From assembly GCA_007124105.1 (NCBI GenBank), contig SLFT01000334.1, positions 1 to 34,609 on the forward strand: 34,609 bases of DNA, given 5' to 3'. This DNA comes from Candidatus Hydrogenedentota bacterium. Lineage in GTDB: Bacteria > Hydrogenedentota > Hydrogenedentia > Hydrogenedentales > CAITNO01. A program made the position numbers and the translations under genes. Numbering within the stretch: position 1 is the first letter of the stretch; each line of letters begins with the position of its first letter. This document shows positions 14,147 through 24,821 of the stretch, piece by piece. A model generated the notes under the pieces. The model made no database searches and was not told the DNA's origin. It was given only the letters and a program-made list of their open reading frames with translations.

Positions 14147-14824
14147 TTACAGCCCTTCATCGGCGGAGAACAGCTCAATGGGGCGGGAAGCGTTTATGAT
14201 TGCCTTGATTACCGGAGGCGGGATATGCGGCGCGGCCACCATAATCAGGGGCGTCACGCCCGTTTGCGCCTCGTAGTCATCTGCGGAGGCGATATACTTG
14301 GGAATATCGCTTGATTTAAGCGCGGCCGTGACTTCGAGCAGAATATGGGTCCCGTCGCCGCGTATGACAATATCCACTTCCCGGTTGCCGTAGTAACCGC
14401 GCTTGACGCTGTAGTTTGTTTCGCCGAGTACGCCCTGCAACGTGTTGCGCATGGTGGCTTCGTTCTGAATGCCCCAGCGCGAACCAAGCGCTGATATGCT
14501 GTCTCGTATTTCCTTAAAGCCAAGGTGCATGGTTCGAACGGTTTCTTTTTGCGCTTCGGCGAGTTCCTCGACACGGCTCTCCGTACGTTTTTGCGCTTCT
14601 GCGAGTTCCTCGACACAGCTCTCCGTACGTTTTTGCGCTTCTGCGAGTTCCTCGACACGGCTCTCCGTACGCTCTTGCGCCCGAGCAAGTTGCTGCACCA
14701 CGTCCTTCAACTCGGTAAAGTCTTCACGGAATACGCCGCGTTCCTCGCGAAGGGCCGTAACAAGATGCAGCAGAGGCGGCCGCAACTCCGCGGGAAATTC
14801 ATCTATAATATTTATCACATGCAC
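14147..14824 (-). CDS. coiled-coil repeat protein with C-terminal PD-(D/E)XK-like domain (DUF3782-like)
   Basis: GTG start with AAGGA RBS; ([14 protein letters not shown])n repeats, LGSRWG..NE, EVDIVIR...LLEVT. Confidence 0.75.
14547..14680. repeat. three near-identical 42-bp (14-aa) coding tandem repeats
   Basis: GCGCTTC.GCGAGTTCCTCGACAC.GCTCTCCGTACG begins at 14551, 14593 and 14635. Confidence 0.9.
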
Positions 14825-14886: not shown

Positions 14887-15000
14887 AAAAGTACGCGTCA
14901 ATTCATTCAGCGATATGCAATAAAGACTCTTTGTAAATGATAGCGCCATTGCACGGGTTTCTTTTTTACGCTTCTTCCGGCCTCGCAATTGGCAATACGA

Positions 15001-16545
15001 CTACGGTTGCTCGCAGTGCGATTCGTTTTCAAAGGCAAGCGCAGCCGTTGGACAGGCGCGTACACACGCTTCGGCCACGGAACCCAACCCCGCTTGAAGG
15101 GTTGCGCCCAGGGCGGCGCGTACACGCGACTTTACGCCTCGCCCGGCAATAGTCATTCCGGGGTCAATGCCGTATTTACGGGTGAGAGCAATGCACACAC
15201 CGCACTTGATACATTTCCCCGGTTCGAACAAAATGGCGCCGGCTCGTTCAATAGGCAGAATAATGCGGTGTGGTAGATTGCGTTTGCCGCCGAGGGTCAC
15301 GCCGTATTCTTCAGCATAAAGACGCAGCTTACAGGTGGTCGGTTGCAGACAGTCACAATGCAGGCATCGCGCCGCTTCTTTTTGCGCGGCACAAGAAAGT
15401 TCAGACGCATTGCCATCTGGCGCCGCATTCATCCCCGCGCGCGACACCATGAACAACGCGTGTTGTCCTTCGCATTCATGGCATCTCTCTTTTCGCTCGA
15501 CGGCATAGGCTTCCAGGTCGTTTTCCTCAAGGCGGCCAAGGCGCGAGTTAAACATGCGTTTTTCCTGATACTCCTCACCGGCAAACAATGCCTGGACACG
15601 CCATGCGGCACGCTTGCCCGCTGCTACCGCACGGACAGGCATTGTTTCTTCACGAGCGCCTATTATGCGTTCGTGGTTGGGCGTTTCAGCATCTTTGATC
15701 GCGAGGATTACGGCGTCGTTCTCTTCGAGGCACGTTGCCAGCGTCATAACGCTCTCTGACTGGCCCGATTCGTTCATATCCACATCCGTAGCGAGAAATG
15801 TCGCCACATTCCATATTTTCAGGAAAGCAAACTCCGCTTCGCGGATGGCATCCGGGATGCTGTCGTCCAGGCCGGGACACACCCGGTCCTCCCTTTCGTA
15901 AAGGCGGCAGGCGTGGCCGTGCTGCGCCAGGACGCGCGCAGCGGCGAGTCCCGCGAGTCCGGCCCCGATAATAGCCACTGATTTTCCGGATGCCGGCTGT
16001 GGCTGTTCCAACTTTTCGGGAAAGGTTTCTGCCGCGCCGCCATGACAGGCGCGTATTGCGAGCGCCTGGTCGTATTGCCCGCGCCGGCATATCTTCTGGC
16101 AAGGGGCGGTACAAATGCTGCCCAGTATGCCGGGAAAAATCAGGTCTTCCCGCGCGATGGTTGCGGCGTCTGCGCCCTCGCCCTGTTGCAGCCGCCGAAG
16201 CATTTGCGGCACACGCAGTCCCGCGGGACACGCCCGCTCACAGGGCCCCTCGCAATCTCCGGCGTGTTCCGCGAGCAGCAGCGCCAAGGTGTCTCGACGC
16301 AACGCGCATATTTCATCGTCATTCGTGACAATGTCCATCCCCTCCTCGGCGGCGGAAGCGCAGGCGAGCAGCGTCTTTCCGGCGGCGGCGTTCCTGACCA
16401 CGCATATCATGCAAGAGGTGAGCGCCCCAGTTTCAGGATGATGGCAGAGCGTGGGAATGGCAACGCCTGCCTCGCGGGCCGCTTCCAGCACGGTGGCGTT
16501 TTCAGCCGCGTCCACTTCGCGTCCATCTATTTTAAGTCGGGGCAT
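15001..16545 (-). CDS. NuoG/HydA-N-like Fe-S subunit with inserted, internally shortened GltD/NfnB-like flavin domain
   Basis: IPTLCHH...SCMIC...C [2Fe-2S]; EH..DCEGPCERACP...GSICTAPCQKIC (GltD-type Fe-S); IIGAGLAG; EAARCLHCDC....C; CIKCGVC...CVRACP. Confidence 0.85.
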   Translation of the reverse strand: MPRLKIDGREVDAAENATVLEAAREAGVAIPTLCHHPETGALTSCMICVVRNAAAGKTLLACASAAEEGMDIVTNDDEICALRRDTLALLLAEHAGDCEGPCERACPAGLRVPQMLRRLQQGEGADAATIAREDLIFPGILGSICTAPCQKICRRGQYDQALAIRACHGGAAETFPEKLEQPQPASGKSVAIIGAGLAGLAAARVLAQHGHACRLYEREDRVCPGLDDSIPDAIREAEFAFLKIWNVATFLATDVDMNESGQSESVMTLATCLEENDAVILAIKDAETPNHERIIGAREETMPVRAVAAGKRAAWRVQALFAGEEYQEKRMFNSRLGRLEENDLEAYAVERKERCHECEGQHALFMVSRAGMNAAPDGNASELSCAAQKEAARCLHCDCLQPTTCKLRLYAEEYGVTLGGKRNLPHRIILPIERAGAILFEPGKCIKCGVCIALTRKYGIDPGMTIAGRGVKSRVRAALGATLQAGLGSVAEACVRACPTAALAFENESHCEQP

Positions 16546-18909
16546 TTATTCCACCTTTACTGCGTTTACGGGACACACGTCAACGCAGCCGTTACACTGA
16601 ACGCATGTTTCCTGGTCAATCAGATGGGCTTCATACGGCGTCGCTGTAATCGCGCCAGAGGGACAGGCCTGTGCGCATTTGGTGCAGCCGATGCATGTGT
16701 CGGCGTCTATGGTGTACGTAAGCAAGGGGCGACACTTCTTGGCCGGGCAACGTCCGTGGATATGCGCCTCGAATTCGTCCCGGAAATGACGCAGCCCGGT
16801 AAGCACCGGGTTGGGCGCGGTCTTGCCGAGGCCGCACAGGCTTTGTTGTTGGATGACTTCGGCCAGCCGCGTGAGGGCGTCAAGGTCCACTGTATCGCCC
16901 CTGCCCGCGCAAAGGTTGTCGAGCATGGTCAGCAGCTGCGCGGCGCCCACGCGACAGGGTACGCATTTGCCGCAGGATTCCATTTGCGTAAACTCGAGGA
17001 AGTAACGGGCCATCTCGACAATACAGTCGGTGTCGTCCATGACAACCAGGCCGCCTGATCCCATCATGGCGCCCGCTTCAGTCAGCGCTTCATAGTCCAC
17101 AGGCAGGTCGGCCAGCGACGCGGGGATGCAGCCGCCCGACGGGCCGCCTATCTGTACAGCCTTGAACGTGTGCCCCTCGGTAACGTCGCCGCCGGCCTCT
17201 TCCACAATCTGGCGGATGGTCATGCCCATGGGCACTTCGATGAGGCCGCCATGATTGATTTTCCCGGCCAGCGCGAAAACTTTCGCGCCCGGGCTGGTTG
17301 GCGTACCGAGGGCCGCGAAGGCTTCCGGACCGTTCCGGAATATCCAGGGGACCATGGCCAGCGTTTCCACATTGTTCACCAGCGTGGGTTTGCCGTTCAG
17401 GCCGCTGTAGGCCGGGAAGGGTGGACGGAACCGGGGCGAAGGGCGTCGCCCCTCGAGCGACACAATCAGGGCGCTTTCCTCGCCGCATACAAAAGCGCCC
17501 GCGCCTTCGCGCACTTCAGCGTCGAAAAACCGTCCGTCTCCAAGCGCGTTATCTCCGAGCAGACCGGCATTGCGACATTGATCCAATGCAAGGCGCGTAC
17601 GCTCCACGGCCATGGGGTATTCAGAGCGCACATAAAATATACCTTGTTCCGCGCCAACTGCGGCCGCGGCGATGAGCATACCTTCAATGACCCGGTAAGC
17701 GAAGGACTCTAGTAACATGCGGTCCATGAACGCGCCCGGGTCGCCCTCGTCGCCGTTGCAAATAATATATTTCGTGCTGTTGACGGCATTGCGTACGATA
17801 CGCCATTTCTCCGCTGTAGGGAATCCCGCGCCGCCGCGCCCGCGCAAGCCGCTTTTTTCAATCACGTCAATGATGGCATCGCCATTGAGGGGCGCGCCGG
17901 GTTCCGCTGCGGCCATGTCCAGGCAGCGGCGCAGCGCGGCGAAGCCGCCGAGCCGAATATATTCTTCCAGATCGGCGGGGTTCGTCTCGCCCGAGTGTTC
18001 CGTAGCGATGCGACATTGTATGTTCAGGAAATGGGTGATATCCGGTTCACGCGGCGCGACACGGCGCACAGGCGATTCGCTTTCACCCGCGTAAAGTTTT
18101 TCCAGGCGGCGTTCGGCGGCGGCGCGCAGTCGTCCAAACGCGCCGGGCGGTGGGATATGCCGCAGCAGGATGTCACTCACGGCGTCGGTCGTCACTTTGG
18201 TATAGGTGTAAATCTCTTCATCGGGCACAGCAATTTCGATGAGCGGGAGCAGGTGACATAACCCCACACAACTGACTGGTTTCACAACAGCGGGCAACCT
18301 GTAACGCGCCAGCGTTTCGTCCACCACATCACGGATGCGTCCGTTGCCGCCGGCGATACAACACGAGTCAAGACATATCCTTATTTCCGGCGGCGCGTCC
18401 GGCAGGGGACGGGGCCGCCCTTTTTCATCGGCCGCAGCCGCAGTGGCGCGTTCAAAGTCTTCGATCATTTCAAGGACGGTATCCGGTCGCACATGGCCGT
18501 AGGTGATGCCGTCAATCTGTACGGCGGGCGCCAGTGTGCAACAGCCCAGACATTGCACCTTCTGTACCGTATATTGACCCCGCGCATCGGTATCCGCGCC
18601 CGGCGCAATGTCCAGCGCTTTGAGTGAAGCGTCAAAAACGCGCTCGGCGTCTTTCAGATGGCAGGCGGTGCCGTCGCACACGCAGATGGTATGCCGCCCG
18701 CCGGGAGTATCGCGAAACATGGGGAAGAAAGACGCGACGCCGTCGAGATCAGCGGGGGTTATCTCCGTAACGTCGCTGATGCGGCGCAACGCCTCGGGCG
18801 GCAGCCAACGAAAAAGGCGCTGCACGTCCTGCAGGATGGGCAACAGCGCCTGTCTGTCTCGTCCATGTGTTTCGATAATGCGGTCAACTTCGCGCAGGTC
18901 AACATCCAT
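16546..18909 (-). CDS. NuoE-NuoF (HydC-HydB / BfuC-BfuB) fusion, FMN/NAD(H)-binding Fe-S flavoprotein
   Basis: CDGTAC...CLGCC (NuoE); second Trx-like site CLDSCC...CVGLC; GRGGAGFPT, NGDEGDPGAFMDR, GAFVCGEE, GGPSGG, ESCGKCVPCR...SLCGLG; C-terminal 2x[4Fe-4S]. Confidence 0.92.
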   Translation of the reverse strand: MDVDLREVDRIIETHGRDRQALLPILQDVQRLFRWLPPEALRRISDVTEITPADLDGVASFFPMFRDTPGGRHTICVCDGTACHLKDAERVFDASLKALDIAPGADTDARGQYTVQKVQCLGCCTLAPAVQIDGITYGHVRPDTVLEMIEDFERATAAAADEKGRPRPLPDAPPEIRICLDSCCIAGGNGRIRDVVDETLARYRLPAVVKPVSCVGLCHLLPLIEIAVPDEEIYTYTKVTTDAVSDILLRHIPPPGAFGRLRAAAERRLEKLYAGESESPVRRVAPREPDITHFLNIQCRIATEHSGETNPADLEEYIRLGGFAALRRCLDMAAAEPGAPLNGDAIIDVIEKSGLRGRGGAGFPTAEKWRIVRNAVNSTKYIICNGDEGDPGAFMDRMLLESFAYRVIEGMLIAAAAVGAEQGIFYVRSEYPMAVERTRLALDQCRNAGLLGDNALGDGRFFDAEVREGAGAFVCGEESALIVSLEGRRPSPRFRPPFPAYSGLNGKPTLVNNVETLAMVPWIFRNGPEAFAALGTPTSPGAKVFALAGKINHGGLIEVPMGMTIRQIVEEAGGDVTEGHTFKAVQIGGPSGGCIPASLADLPVDYEALTEAGAMMGSGGLVVMDDTDCIVEMARYFLEFTQMESCGKCVPCRVGAAQLLTMLDNLCAGRGDTVDLDALTRLAEVIQQQSLCGLGKTAPNPVLTGLRHFRDEFEAHIHGRCPAKKCRPLLTYTIDADTCIGCTKCAQACPSGAITATPYEAHLIDQETCVQCNGCVDVCPVNAVKVE

Positions 18910-22068: not shown

Positions 22069-22628
22069 CAGGCGCCTTCCCCAGCGTTTTCATCGTACTT
22101 CAATACATAGGCGCGGCTCAGCGGGATACGTTCGATGGCGTTCGAGGGACAATCGCGCGCGATGGCGCATTCATTACAGTGAGCGCAGAGATCGCGCTTG
22201 ATTTGCAGATAAAGCGACCCGTTGCCAAACTGGCCGCAGCCTTTCACGCATTTCCCACAACCGATGCACAAGTCCTCGTCAATGGAATAGGCGAAATAGG
22301 GTTCTTCCACAAAACGGCGCGTAATGGCTGCTGTGGGGCAGAGTTCGTTCTCGGCGCCCGTGTCCAGCGCGGGCGCGGCGGGTTGCAGATAGCCGCTGCA
22401 CAAGTCGCAGTAGCCGCATATCTTTGTGGCGTGTACACATTTCACCGCCGAGGGGTTCAGTACGCAGTGCGTGGCGCAACGACCGCATTGGGTGCATTTG
22501 TGTGGGTCTATCTGCCACACCCACTTTTCCGCCGACGGCGATGCGGCCATCCAGACCCCGCCGCCAAGAGCGGCCACGGCGGCGGCGCGTATGAATTCGC
22601 GGCGGCCAGGTTTCGTCTCCGTACTCAT
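22068..22628 (-). CDS. Tat-signal polyferredoxin (NapG/MauM-like role)
   Basis: GRREFIR twin-arginine motif plus hydrophobic stretch; CTQCGRCATHC, CGYCDLC, CP, CIGCGKCVKGC, CAHCNEC....CP; TGATG overlap with the next gene. Confidence 0.85.
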   Translation of the reverse strand: MSTETKPGRREFIRAAAVAALGGGVWMAASPSAEKWVWQIDPHKCTQCGRCATHCVLNPSAVKCVHATKICGYCDLCSGYLQPAAPALDTGAENELCPTAAITRRFVEEPYFAYSIDEDLCIGCGKCVKGCGQFGNGSLYLQIKRDLCAHCNECAIARDCPSNAIERIPLSRAYVLKYDENAGEGA

Positions 22629-23674
22629 TCTTTTTCCTTTCCTGCGTCAATCGGCTCAAAGACCAGTATGGCGCGCAAGGGGCCGTGCAACACCAGGATA
22701 CGGTCATTGGTGTCCACGGCCAGGTCGCGAATGGGCGCCGGGTCAGCCGGGAACTCCGCGGCGTTCCAGCCCGCGTTCAAATGTTCCGACGTTGCCGCCA
22801 CGCCGGCAAAGGAGCGGTCGGCGGCAAAGGTCTTCACGCGATTGATGCCCTTCTCCGCTGTTACCAACGTACCGTTGCTCTTAAACGCAATATGGATGGG
22901 ATTGCAGCAGCCGGGAAACTGATGCGTCGCGAAACCCGGCTGATGCCAGGCGGTCAGCAACGCGCCGTCCGCGCGGTATTTTTCCACCCCGAGTTTTCCC
23001 GGGTTGGAAACCCACAATGCGCCCATTGCGTCAAAGGCCACATCCAAATAGTGACTTGGAACAACGAATCCGATACTATCCCGTTCAGGATCGCGCTCAC
23101 CGATTGTATTTAGTATTTGACCGTCATGGGTATAGCGATAAACGCGCGCATTGCCCGCATCGGCGACAAACACATGGTTTTCATCCACCACAATTTCGGT
23201 GGTCCAGGCGCGTTCGCCCAGGGTTTCCCAGTTGGTGTGATGTTCTCCCGTGTCGCTGAATACAGCCAGATGGTCGCGCATACCGAGATACATCGTACCG
23301 TCCGGCGCTACGGCAACACAGTCAGGGCGCCCATCAATCTCATGGCGCGCCTGTTCGCGTCCTGTTTCGTCCAGCATGAGCAACGCCCCCTCGCCTGTTG
23401 CCCACAGGCGACCTTCGCTGTCTACAGCGAGTCCGGAGGGATTGTCCAGTTCCAGCGCGATGCGCGCCGTCTCATGGTAGCGCACATCGTCATCAGCCAC
23501 GGCCTCGTAGCGCGAAACATCATATACCAGCGCTTCGCCCGGTTCGTCGGGACGGTCCGTCATGAACAGCGCAAGCGTCAACGCCACCACCGCGATGGCG
23601 AGAACCGCCCACGCCCAGTCAGGTATCATTCTTTGTTGTTTATGCTGCATGGGATTTTCTTTGTAAGGAAACAT
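22625..23674 (-). CDS. membrane-anchored NHL-repeat beta-propeller protein with GCCNP motif
   Basis: N-terminal TM; NHL-like repeats (PSGLAVDSEGRLW, PDCVAVAPDG, VFVADAGNARV, DVAFDAMG.LWVSNPG, DLAVDTNDRILVL); ATGA overlap with the ferredoxin gene. Confidence 0.82.
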   Translation of the reverse strand: MFPYKENPMQHKQQRMIPDWAWAVLAIAVVALTLALFMTDRPDEPGEALVYDVSRYEAVADDDVRYHETARIALELDNPSGLAVDSEGRLWATGEGALLMLDETGREQARHEIDGRPDCVAVAPDGTMYLGMRDHLAVFSDTGEHHTNWETLGERAWTTEIVVDENHVFVADAGNARVYRYTHDGQILNTIGERDPERDSIGFVVPSHYLDVAFDAMGALWVSNPGKLGVEKYRADGALLTAWHQPGFATHQFPGCCNPIHIAFKSNGTLVTAEKGINRVKTFAADRSFAGVAATSEHLNAGWNAAEFPADPAPIRDLAVDTNDRILVLHGPLRAILVFEPIDAGKEKE

Positions 23675-23741: not shown

Positions 23742-24821
23742 TCAATCTTGTTCAGCAAGACGCGCGGCACGGTCGGCCACATTGAGCGCGTCAAGCAAGT
23801 CATCGAGGTCGCCTTCAAGAATCTCGCGCAATTTGTAAAGCGAGAGTTGGATGCGATGGTCAGTGACTCGGTTTTCGGGGAAATTATAGGTGCGGATTTT
23901 TTCGCTGCGGTCGCCCGTACGCACCTGGCTGCGGCGGTCCTCGGCGCGCGCGTCTGCGCCCTCACGAATTTTGATGTCCAGCAACCGCGCGCGCAACACG
24001 CGCAACGCCTGCGCCTTGTTTTTGTGTTGCGATTTTTCGTCCTGGCACATCACGACCAGGCCGGTGGGCTTATGGGTAATGCGCACGGCGGAATCAGTGG
24101 TGTTTACGCTCTGACCGCCCGGCCCCGAGGAACGGTACACGTCAATCTGCAAATCGTTGGGGTCAATGGCGACATCCACTTCCTCCGCTTCAGGCAGCAC
24201 GGCCACTGTCACGGCGGATGTGTGAATGCGCCCCTGCGTTTCCGTGTCAGGCACGCGCTGCACCCGATGTACGCCGCCCTCCCATTTCATCAGGCTGTAC
24301 ACGCTGTCGCCAGTGATTTGGAAACAGACTTCCTTGAATCCGCCCAGTCCCGTGGGATTCGAGTTCATCACCTCGATTTTCCAGCCGCGAATCTCGGCAA
24401 ATCGGGAATACATGCGGAACAGGTTGGCGGCAAACAAGCCCGCTTCTTCTCCGCCGGTGCCCGCTCTTATCTCCACGATGGTATTCTTTTCGTCGTTGGG
24501 ATCCTTAGGCACGAGAAGCAGACGTAATTCCTCCTCGCGTCCTTCCAACGACACCTTCAACCGGTCGTACTCTTCGTGAGCAAACGCGAGCATTTCCGGA
24601 TCGGTTTCATCGCGGATTACCCGCTGTGCCTCACGCAACCCTTCTTCCTCGCGTTGATATCGCGCAAATGCCTGCACCAGGTCAGACAGCTCCGCATATT
24701 TGCGGGCGTGTTTCTGGTACACATCGGGATTCATGGCCACTTCGGGCGTGGCCATGGTATCAGCCAGACGCTGATGATCGGCTGTAAGCGCCTCGAGTTT
24801 CTCGCGCAATCGCGCTTCCAT
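23742..24821 (-). CDS. prfA: peptide chain release factor 1
   Basis: EIRAGTGGEEA, HRVQRVPDTE (PxT motif specific to RF1), GPGGQSVN, RTYNFP. Confidence 0.97.
   Translation of the reverse strand: MEARLREKLEALTADHQRLADTMATPEVAMNPDVYQKHARKYAELSDLVQAFARYQREEEGLREAQRVIRDETDPEMLAFAHEEYDRLKVSLEGREEELRLLLVPKDPNDEKNTIVEIRAGTGGEEAGLFAANLFRMYSRFAEIRGWKIEVMNSNPTGLGGFKEVCFQITGDSVYSLMKWEGGVHRVQRVPDTETQGRIHTSAVTVAVLPEAEEVDVAIDPNDLQIDVYRSSGPGGQSVNTTDSAVRITHKPTGLVVMCQDEKSQHKNKAQALRVLRARLLDIKIREGADARAEDRRSQVRTGDRSEKIRTYNFPENRVTDHRIQLSLYKLREILEGDLDDLLDALNVADRAARLAEQD

Follow-up and report, generated by a model that had tools for sequence, protein, structure and literature searches.

The window analyzed here is a contig of 34,609 nucleotides assigned to a Candidatus Hydrogenedentota bacterium (SLFT01000334.1, assembly GCA_007124105.1). 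It carries a six-gene cluster on the reverse strand that ends in the gene of interest, an open reading frame (ORF) whose 514-residue product, hereafter the target, is of the NfnA/StnC (BfuA) type. The cluster runs in the order NHL propeller, twin-arginine translocation (Tat) ferredoxin, NapH-like membrane protein, PQQ_2 propeller with transmembrane segments (PQQ-TM), NuoE-NuoF (NuoEF) fusion, and then the target (Table 1). Bfu-type enzymes, which include HydABC, NfnABC and StnABC, are a recently recognized class of electron-bifurcating machines. The original prediction, made from the letters of the sequence, took the target for a NuoG-like chain with a GltD/NfnB-like insert from which the NADP(H) domain had apparently been deleted, leaving an iron-sulfur wire or docking adaptor. 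The anatomy proposed there proved accurate; the age of the deletion and, in part, the role of the protein call for a different account.

All strings on which that anatomy was based are found in the translation, at residues 91-94 (LAEH), 192-199 (IIGAGLAG), 277-283 (DAVILAI), 394-399 (CLHCDC), 445-454 (CIKCGVCIAL) and 491-499 (AEACVRACP). Beyond the Fer2_4 and Fer4_20 domains, Pfam recognizes only the first ~35 residues of flavin adenine dinucleotide (FAD)/NAD Rossmann models. The GltD-type clusters have the ligand pattern H94-x3-C98-x3-C102-x3-C106-P and C145-x3-C149-x3-C153, plus a conserved H168, and the Rossmann remnant comprises GAGLAG (194-199), E217, DAVILA (277-282) and a final helix, VRAVAAGKRAA (304-314), which begins after a gap of 20 residues from the end of DAVILAI. 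When the target is aligned to the 657 positions of the NF009454 profile, residues 4-285 correspond to positions 6-288 and residues 302-462 to positions 481-635; the 16 residues between them replace 192 positions that constitute the NADPH Rossmann domain. The same deletion is apparent against full-length paralogues from the same genome. There is no GD motif. The C-terminus lies only 15 residues past the CP motif, and the Fdh-like C-terminal domain with its two dead-end clusters is gone. We infer the assignment of each cysteine in the C394-C405 motif, where the chain returns to the NuoG-like fold, to its cluster.

The shortened architecture is shared widely. Among the best 120 relatives listed from a collection of 5.8 billion proteins, 119 span 94% or more of the query, with lengths of 446-606 residues and identities of 35-62%, and the remaining one is a 408-residue partial. 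An exhaustive search of representative sequences recovers 715 proteins at E <= 1e-30, the best 150 of which are mostly 464-560 residues long. A pattern search of contigs drawn from one genome per species gave 611 matches, and 554 of them encode relatives. The labels of the 80 loci that were retained are Hydrogenedentota, Kiritimatiellota, Verrucomicrobiota, Lentisphaerota, Planctomycetota, Bacteroidales, Aminicenantes, KSB1, Cloacimonetes and, by the label of a metagenome-assembled genome, Nitrospirota, about ten phylum-level groups in total; cultured hosts among the Bacteroidales loci are Labilibaculum euxinus and Sunxiuqinia rutila. The 78 locus ORFs and the listed proteins, with duplicates removed, form a set of 190 distinct sequences (hereafter the family), and a regular expression for the second dinucleotide motif matches none of them, as had been noted for the target itself. 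The deletion is therefore common to homologues in the same type of gene cluster and is not specific to this strain.

The assembly around the junction is sound. Logan contigs from four runs in two studies span it, with no joints or indels anywhere within the gene; one of them (X3, record 18) covers 15408-15914 without a difference, and another (X4, record 26), which comes from the second study, covers 15287-15717 and differs at 3 of 431 bases. The best-matching runs may be the window's own source, which leaves the second study as the only independent one. The bridging contigs, the open frame and the like architecture of 190 relatives rule out a mis-assembly, or a decay into a pseudogene confined to the strain, and we regard the chance of an artefact or a recent strain-specific break as negligible. 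The runs that contain at least half of the words sampled from 14900-16700 (X1-X4) are labeled as soda-lake, alkali-sediment and sediment metagenomes, and none of the runs listed is an RNA data set. Minor variant contigs of 90-95% likeness occur alongside those of the target, which suggests the presence of related strains.

Table 1. Features of the target gene and its surroundings, in window coordinates
Feature	Position	Strand	Basis
BfuA/NfnA(StnC)-type flavo-iron-sulfur subunit without NADPH and Fdh-like domains (target, 514 residues)	15001..16545	-	ORF, Pfam, NCBIfam, PDB matches, AlphaFold2 model
N-terminal [2Fe-2S] domain, residues 1-80, C34/C45/C48/C62	16306..16545	-	Fer2_4 4-75
GltD-type two-[4Fe-4S] ligand region (A6, A7)	16042..16284	-	Fer4_20 88-167
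Remnant FAD-type Rossmann domain, residues 189-314	15604..15981	-	NAD_binding_8 192-223; structure alignment
Deletion junction, residues 286-301 (16 residues)	15643..15690	-	NF009454 positions 289-480 unmatched; paralogue alignment; bridging contigs
C394-x2-C397-x-C399-x5-C405 motif, return to NuoG-like fold after the insert	15331..15366	-	aligns to StnC 555 onward
Single-cluster ferredoxin-like fold, C445-x2-C448-x2-C451...C498-P	15049..15213	-	family-wide Cys counts
NuoE-NuoF fusion, BfuC-BfuB (StnA-StnB / NfnC-NfnB), 787 residues	16546..18909	-	Pfam, PDB matches
Membrane-anchored PQQ_2/BamB-like beta-propeller (PQQ-TM), 596 residues	18915..20705	-	PQQ_2 E 6e-35; conserved locus position
NapH/NosH-like membrane Fe-S protein, 428 residues	20782..22068	-	Fer4_5, Fer4; weak NapH and NosR matches
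NapG-like poly-[4Fe-4S] ferredoxin, twin-arginine leader (GRREFIR), 186 residues	22068..22628	-	TIGR02811 Tat target 4-33
NHL-repeat beta-propeller with N-terminal hydrophobic anchor, 349 residues; first cluster gene in the window	22625..23674	-	Pfam
Release-factor gene, upstream of the cluster	23742-24821
DUF3782 / PD-(D/E)XK-like protein, directly downstream of the target; three tandem ~14-residue units	14147-14824	-

Cofactor ligands and the decay of the NADPH site

Conservation of the iron-sulfur ligands is close to complete. The four [2Fe-2S] cysteines and H94, C98, C102, C106, C145, C149 and C153 are each present in all 190 sequences, and C394, C397, C399, C405, C445, C448, C451 and the C498-Pro pair are each present in 187-188. 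Position 168 is occupied by His in 133 sequences and by Lys in 48 (one or the other in 181). In an ungapped alignment with an offset of +2, C106, C145, C149 and H168 correspond to C108, C147, C151 and K170 of NfnA from Caldicellulosiruptor saccharolyticus (Csac), residues described as ligating the flavin-proximal cluster, A7 in NfnA and C7 in StnC; the [2Fe-2S] cluster is named A1 in the first of these schemes and C4 in the second (PMC11829005; PMC10482914).

The C-terminal ferredoxin-like motifs supply one full set of four cysteines throughout the family. In motif 1, the first three cysteines are kept in 187-188 sequences, and the position of the fourth is taken by Thr, Ala or Ser, with Cys in only 5. 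In motif 2, the first two cysteines are missing (Gly, Gln, Arg and others at one position, Ala at the other), and the fourth, followed by Pro, is kept in 187. A second cluster (A4 in NfnA, FS4A-like) is therefore left without a ligand set, which bears out the earlier reading of these motifs as sufficient for a single [4Fe-4S]. Going by the ligand lists of CpI, the missing cluster would be the equivalent of the H-cluster-proximal FS4A of [FeFe] hydrogenases, and the CxxCxxC...CP pattern that remains is that of NuoG cluster N4. Structural accounts of NfnABC and StnABC trace a linear route that leads from FAD to a NuoF-type flavin mononucleotide (FMN) by way of five clusters (A7-A6-A3-A2-A1); two more clusters, located within the Fdh-like domain or next to it, are regarded there as a dead-end, non-functional evolutionary remnant (PMC10482914; PMC11829005). 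The target retains the ligand sets of exactly the five on-path clusters, one [2Fe-2S] and four [4Fe-4S], and both off-path sets are gone. The iron-sulfur chain appears to be the indispensable part of the protein; because A6 and A7 are retained in a family that has shed other clusters, electrons would still be expected to reach that end.

The flavin site is less easily read. GxGxxG is found in 184 of the 190 sequences, an acidic residue at the end of beta-2 (E/D217) in 187, and an Arg equivalent to StnC R239 in 155; the short and minimal linker classes no longer have the GD motif. The target itself keeps GAGLAG and E217 and has D227 at the position of the conserved Arg. Two of its close relatives, P0004 and P0005, have lost both GxGxxG and the acidic residue and retain every cluster ligand. 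Flavin is probably retained in most family members, since the FAD fingerprint has been kept while the disused NADPH motif of sister lineages decayed quickly. For the target, the chance of flavin binding seems about even, given D227, the missing GD motif and the loss of the fingerprint in P0004 and P0005.

These features bear on two alternatives. The first, that in the target organism the protein is a flavin-free wire with a purely structural Rossmann remnant, would account for the lost GD motif, for D227 and for the two relatives without GxGxxG, but has against it the GAGLAG, E217 and terminal helix that the target keeps and the fingerprint of 184 relatives, and we consider it very unlikely. 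The second is that the loss of a domain has exposed the FAD as a new catalytic site for a small molecule, such as a quinone on the membrane surface or some other compound that gives or takes hydride. The conserved fingerprint and flavin-facing Arg of most members, the predicted membrane location of the complex and the proposal of quinone-linked Bfu members (PMC9304861) are consistent with such a site, which is nonetheless quite unlikely in view of the GD motif lost in two linker classes, the Arg lost in the target, the missing fingerprint of P0004 and P0005 and the failure to find any substrate-binding element. The original description of a subunit reduced to an iron-sulfur wire or adaptor is consistent with the ligands kept in 187-190 of the 190 sequences; it overlooks the FAD fingerprint, and so probably understates what the protein does.

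The family also preserves intermediate stages of the loss. Three classes can be told apart by the length of the linker between DAV and VRAV, of about 51-64, about 24-25 (that of the target) and about 10 residues, and the longest class retains a G-I-x-v-D...GVFAxG[D] element. Relatives of 660-720 residues retain the NADPH domain, most of them with intact GGGNTAMDxAR and GVFAGGD. In eight long relatives the NADPH motif has drifted (to GGDAEAVD, AAGSPGTD, GDRQEAAQ or GSGLAAFD, for example); these were read from the alignment, the regular expression being too strict for such motifs. A tree of 57 hand-picked rows was rooted on two StnC-like ORFs (L163 and L164), of which only the first 720 residues were used. 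From its root upward, intact forms make up one grade and degenerate forms the next, and the 32 domain-less rows then form a single clade with a support of 100 in the Shimodaira-Hasegawa-like approximate likelihood-ratio test (SH-aLRT). A short clade of 15 rows (97) is nested within the domain-less clade. The presence and absence of the domain needs at least two changes on this tree, the second being L141, which stands beside the degenerate P0219 (98). The groups of a 115-row unrooted tree, from which L163 and L164 were left out, agree with those of the rooted one.

The series suggests a ladder from an intact NADPH domain through a decayed motif to deletion and, in the target, further trimming. 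By this evidence the loss of the domain is old, stepwise and inherited across many phyla. The word "deleted" in the original prediction therefore holds, and its hint of a recent event does not. The family may be seen as a naturally occurring set of stages, in which a single substrate site of such an enzyme first degenerates and is later cut out, with the iron-sulfur chain and most of the flavin fingerprint still under selection. Some domain-less A subunits also carry C-terminal additions: a PQQ_2 propeller in P0171, a second full Pyr_redox_2/GltD-like module with Fer4 in P0180 and a URO-D-like domain in P0243.

Gene neighborhood and proposed function

The stop codon of the NuoEF fusion abuts the ATG of the target. 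The fusion contains the features of a Bfu core in Pfam terms (2Fe-2S_thioredx, Complex1_51K, NADH_4Fe-4S and two Fer4), including the additional thioredoxin-like domain and, at the C-terminus, a 2x[4Fe-4S] domain. The best PDB matches of the fusion are NfnB (9bov_B, E 4.2e-194, with residues 175-787 aligned to 2-584), NfnB of T. sibiricus (9n5u_B) and StnB (8oh5_B); 9bov_B and 8oh5_B are matched over their full length. By script, NuoF or NuoEF lies directly upstream of the target homologue in 105 of the 112 loci with enough flank, and two of the seven misses (L008 and L095) do have it. Further upstream, PQQ-TM shows three N-terminal hydrophobic segments, read from the sequence, and a stretch, DNHYGHSSSL, that hardly varies; its alignment reveals no metal motif of conserved Cys or His. 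The NapH-like protein has a GCVC (C103, C105), two CxxxCP and two CxxCxxCxxxCP motifs that are invariant in 48 sequences.

The composition of the neighborhood varies with the state of the A subunit. The comparison covers loci that could be classified and have 5.5 kb or more of upstream sequence (29 loci that a motif-span rule could not classify were left out, and the "mid" and "short" labels, which do not match the linker classes, were pooled as "domain-less"). Of these, 54 have a domain-less A subunit. NapH-like genes accompany 51 of the 54, PQQ-TM 49, and both together 49. Both loci with a degenerate-motif A subunit have NapH-like and PQQ-TM genes. Of 19 with an intact motif, 13 have NapH and none has PQQ-TM; the six without NapH resemble stand-alone Nfn-type units. 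Loss of the NADPH site thus goes together with acquisition of PQQ-TM and with the common NuoE-NuoF fusion. A PQQ_2 gene also lies within 400 nucleotides after the target homologue in 30 of 106 loci, and P0171 (867 residues) joins a short form, a hydrophobic segment and a PQQ_2 propeller in one chain. In Labilibaculum euxinus (L077) the counterpart of that propeller is encoded by a gene of its own further downstream, and its N-terminus resembles a signal. The same locus (1-20649) also encodes four more PQQ_2 propellers, an ABC ATPase together with an FtsX-type permease of 1097 residues, a radical-SAM enzyme and a small Fe-S protein.

On balance we lean slightly towards the view that the target is the BfuA (NfnA/StnC-type) electron-transfer subunit of an NADH-dehydrogenase module derived from Nfn-Bfu/Stn enzymes, which links the NADH-oxidizing core to the NapGH-like module and has lost the canonical NADPH chemistry. 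Such a subunit would no longer oxidize or reduce NADP(H); electrons would pass through it between the NADH/FMN core and the NapGH-like membrane and periplasmic module, and its former NADPH end, consisting of cluster A7 and the Rossmann remnant, would now contact a putative protein partner. In most family members FAD would probably still be present there as a mediator between one- and two-electron transfer.

Several points weigh against this view. The NapH, Tat-ferredoxin and NHL genes already adjoin the A subunit in 13 of the 19 intact-motif loci. Their presence beside an intact NADPH site suggests that the membrane module may be attached elsewhere than at the vacated site, at least ancestrally, for instance at the C-terminal ferredoxin domain of NuoF. 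The link between PQQ-TM and NADPH loss is not statistically independent because it represents essentially one evolutionary transition, and both trees come from a quick search with SH-aLRT support only, some nodes of the ladder standing at 81-94. Further, flavin seems to be dispensable in at least some members, because P0004 and P0005 have lost the fingerprint and the target has Asp in place of Arg.

It is also conceivable that the A-subunit chain is a dead-end electron store or a structural platform, and that the membrane module is fed by the NuoF-type C-terminal 2x[4Fe-4S] domain, the Bfu ferredoxin site. In those 13 intact loci NADPH occupies the A-end, as this alternative would have it, and the account of the Csac NfnABC enzyme discusses side clusters as an "overflow electron pool" (PMC11829005). 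Set against it is a pattern of retention that would be surprising in a chain without an outlet: the off-path clusters have been shed, and the ligands of the distal A6 and A7, the special fourth one among them, persist in 181-190 of the 190 sequences. We rate a dead-end chain as unlikely. A prediction of the complex between the target and the NapH-like protein scored 0.01 and 0.03 against a mark of 0.32, which is no evidence either way.

An electron-transferring BfuA subunit would fit into a larger proposal, which we put forward as possible but doubtful: that the six genes encode an undescribed, widespread membrane-bound Bfu-type complex in which the NADP(H) site has been exchanged for a NapH/NapG-like transmembrane route to periplasmic beta-propellers. 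NADH, possibly together with ferredoxin via the bifurcating core, would then drive a quinone-free periplasmic redox reaction, and the vacated site would be a docking surface. We know of no settled cytoplasmic electron supply for NapH/NapG-like modules; if true, the proposal would assign proteins of the NapH/NosR type a definite electron donor in the cytoplasm. In any case, the family ties a Bfu core to a NapH/NapG-like module. Because it occurs in cultured Bacteroidales (Labilibaculum and Sunxiuqinia), the amount of flavin, the activity with NADH as against NADPH and the way the complex is built are open to direct testing. The founding survey of Bfu enzymes left many clades unassigned, "18 of the 57 clades" in one place and 17 elsewhere (PMC9304861). 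Apart from the known Bfu and Nfn papers, full-text searches found nothing relevant and no published description of the operon or of the truncated subunit; these searches did not cover the supplementary clade tables of that survey, where members may be listed.

Other features of the genome stand beside these. Full-length GltD-type proteins are encoded at three further places: a NuoF-GltD fusion beside a HydA-like gene (L081, contig C317), a second fusion (L083, C215) and a 476-residue NfnB-like protein behind a 302-residue ORF (L082, C48). NADPH-linked modules therefore exist in the organism. Promoter and terminator scans at both ends of the cluster gave no signal above shuffle level.

Relation to known enzymes

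By sequence, the nearest solved chains are 9bov_A (C. saccharolyticus), 9n5u_A (Thermococcus sibiricus) and 8oh5_C (StnC of Sporomusa ovata), with E-values from 1.6e-45 to 4.9e-42. In a search of PDB sequences, target residues 4-220 and 387-507 align to StnC 6-225 and 555-675 with the middle skipped, and residues 2-282 and 389-503 align to T. sibiricus NfnA 10-287 and 585-698. An AlphaFold2 model, built from an alignment of 55 family members, has a predicted local distance difference test score of 92.0 and a predicted template modeling score of 0.90. Foldseek ranks the same chains at the top for this model (8oh5_C, 9bov_A and 9n5u_A; E 4e-29 to 6e-27). In VIA-align, 485 of its 514 residues superpose on 9bov_A (Z 30.4, root-mean-square deviation (rmsd) 2.9), and the NfnA/StnC chains in general give 478-485 residues at Z 29-30. 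Model residues 97-323 superpose on residues 46-472 of the large subunit of Pyrococcus furiosus NfnI (219 residues, rmsd 1.7, Z 23.2), with about 200 residues of the latter left out. The N-terminal part of the complex I 75-kDa subunit and HoxU match about 210 residues spread over model positions 1-514 (Z 23.3-23.6). Taking the alignments to 9bov_A, the 75-kDa subunit and the NfnI large subunit together, the modeled fold is that of a HoxU/NuoG-N-terminal module carrying a GltD-type insert minus its NADPH domain, in agreement with the domain scan (Fer2_4, Fer4_20 and a partial Rossmann match).

Profile scores place the target outside the families compared here. It reaches 251.6 bits with NF009454/PRK12814, below the cut-off of 916, and remains below the cut-offs of the GltD profiles as well (TIGR01317, 67.2 against 447.7; TIGR01318, 39.8 against 482.95). 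The scores for NuoG (TIGR01973, 61 against 470 bits) and HoxU (NF005745, 73 against 333) reflect a match limited to the N-terminal ~100 residues, and that for group A6 [FeFe] hydrogenase (NF040763, 113 against 765 bits) a match limited to residues 4-106; with this profile, no H-cluster domain is found in the target. Of the features that characterize NfnA/StnC, the target has the N-terminal [2Fe-2S] and NuoG-like clusters beside a BfuB/BfuC core and the GltD-like two-cluster insert; the NADP(H) Rossmann domain (GGGNxAxD) and the Fdh/NuoG-like C-terminal domain with A4/A5 are absent. The target descends from NfnA/StnC and probably works like it, yet two features by which that family is defined are missing. 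Its place in the Bfu scheme would be that of the A3-containing A subunit of an extra-subunit complex derived from Type 1 Nfn-Bfu (PMC9304861; PMC11829005). Its relatives carry generic database names ("ferredoxin", "2Fe-2S iron-sulfur cluster-binding protein", "NAD(P)-binding protein"). Such proteins should not be named NADPH-dependent glutamate synthase subunits. With its NADPH domain truly gone, the target cannot be a transhydrogenase subunit of the canonical NADPH-dependent kind, which supports the earlier view on this point.

The closest known counterparts remain the StnC/NfnA chains (8oh5_C, 9bov_A, 9n5u_A), which share with the target the [2Fe-2S] N-terminus, an NfnL/GltD-like insert with two [4Fe-4S], the return to a NuoG-like fold, a flavin-proximal cluster with a non-Cys fourth ligand and an NfnB/StnB-type partner subunit. 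They differ from it in having the NADPH Rossmann domain (about 165-190 residues), the Fdh-like C-terminal domain, the A4/A5 (C1/C2) clusters and the GD motif, and in using Lys where the target has His as the fourth ligand of A7. They also form a soluble three-gene unit, whereas the target is encoded alongside membrane and periplasmic proteins. The NF009454/PRK12814 proteins ("putative NADPH-dependent glutamate synthase small subunit", ~657 residues) have the same domain order as the target, which is missing one of their domains, and the 660-720-residue relatives share its operon type and form sister grades in the tree. NfnB/NfnL, GltD and the N-terminal module of dihydropyrimidine dehydrogenase (5jfc_L, 2vdc_G) superpose on it in the Fer4_20 two-cluster domain and the core of the FAD domain, but these stand alone or are otherwise fused and keep the NADPH domain, and the FAD of NfnL is the bifurcating site. 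Finally, the target without its insert is a HoxU-sized protein with a [2Fe-2S], a His-type cluster and one [4Fe-4S], like HoxU (5xf9_F) and the N-terminal part of the NuoG/75-kDa subunit (7qsm_G); unlike these, it contains a GltD-derived insert of ~290 residues that brings two more clusters.

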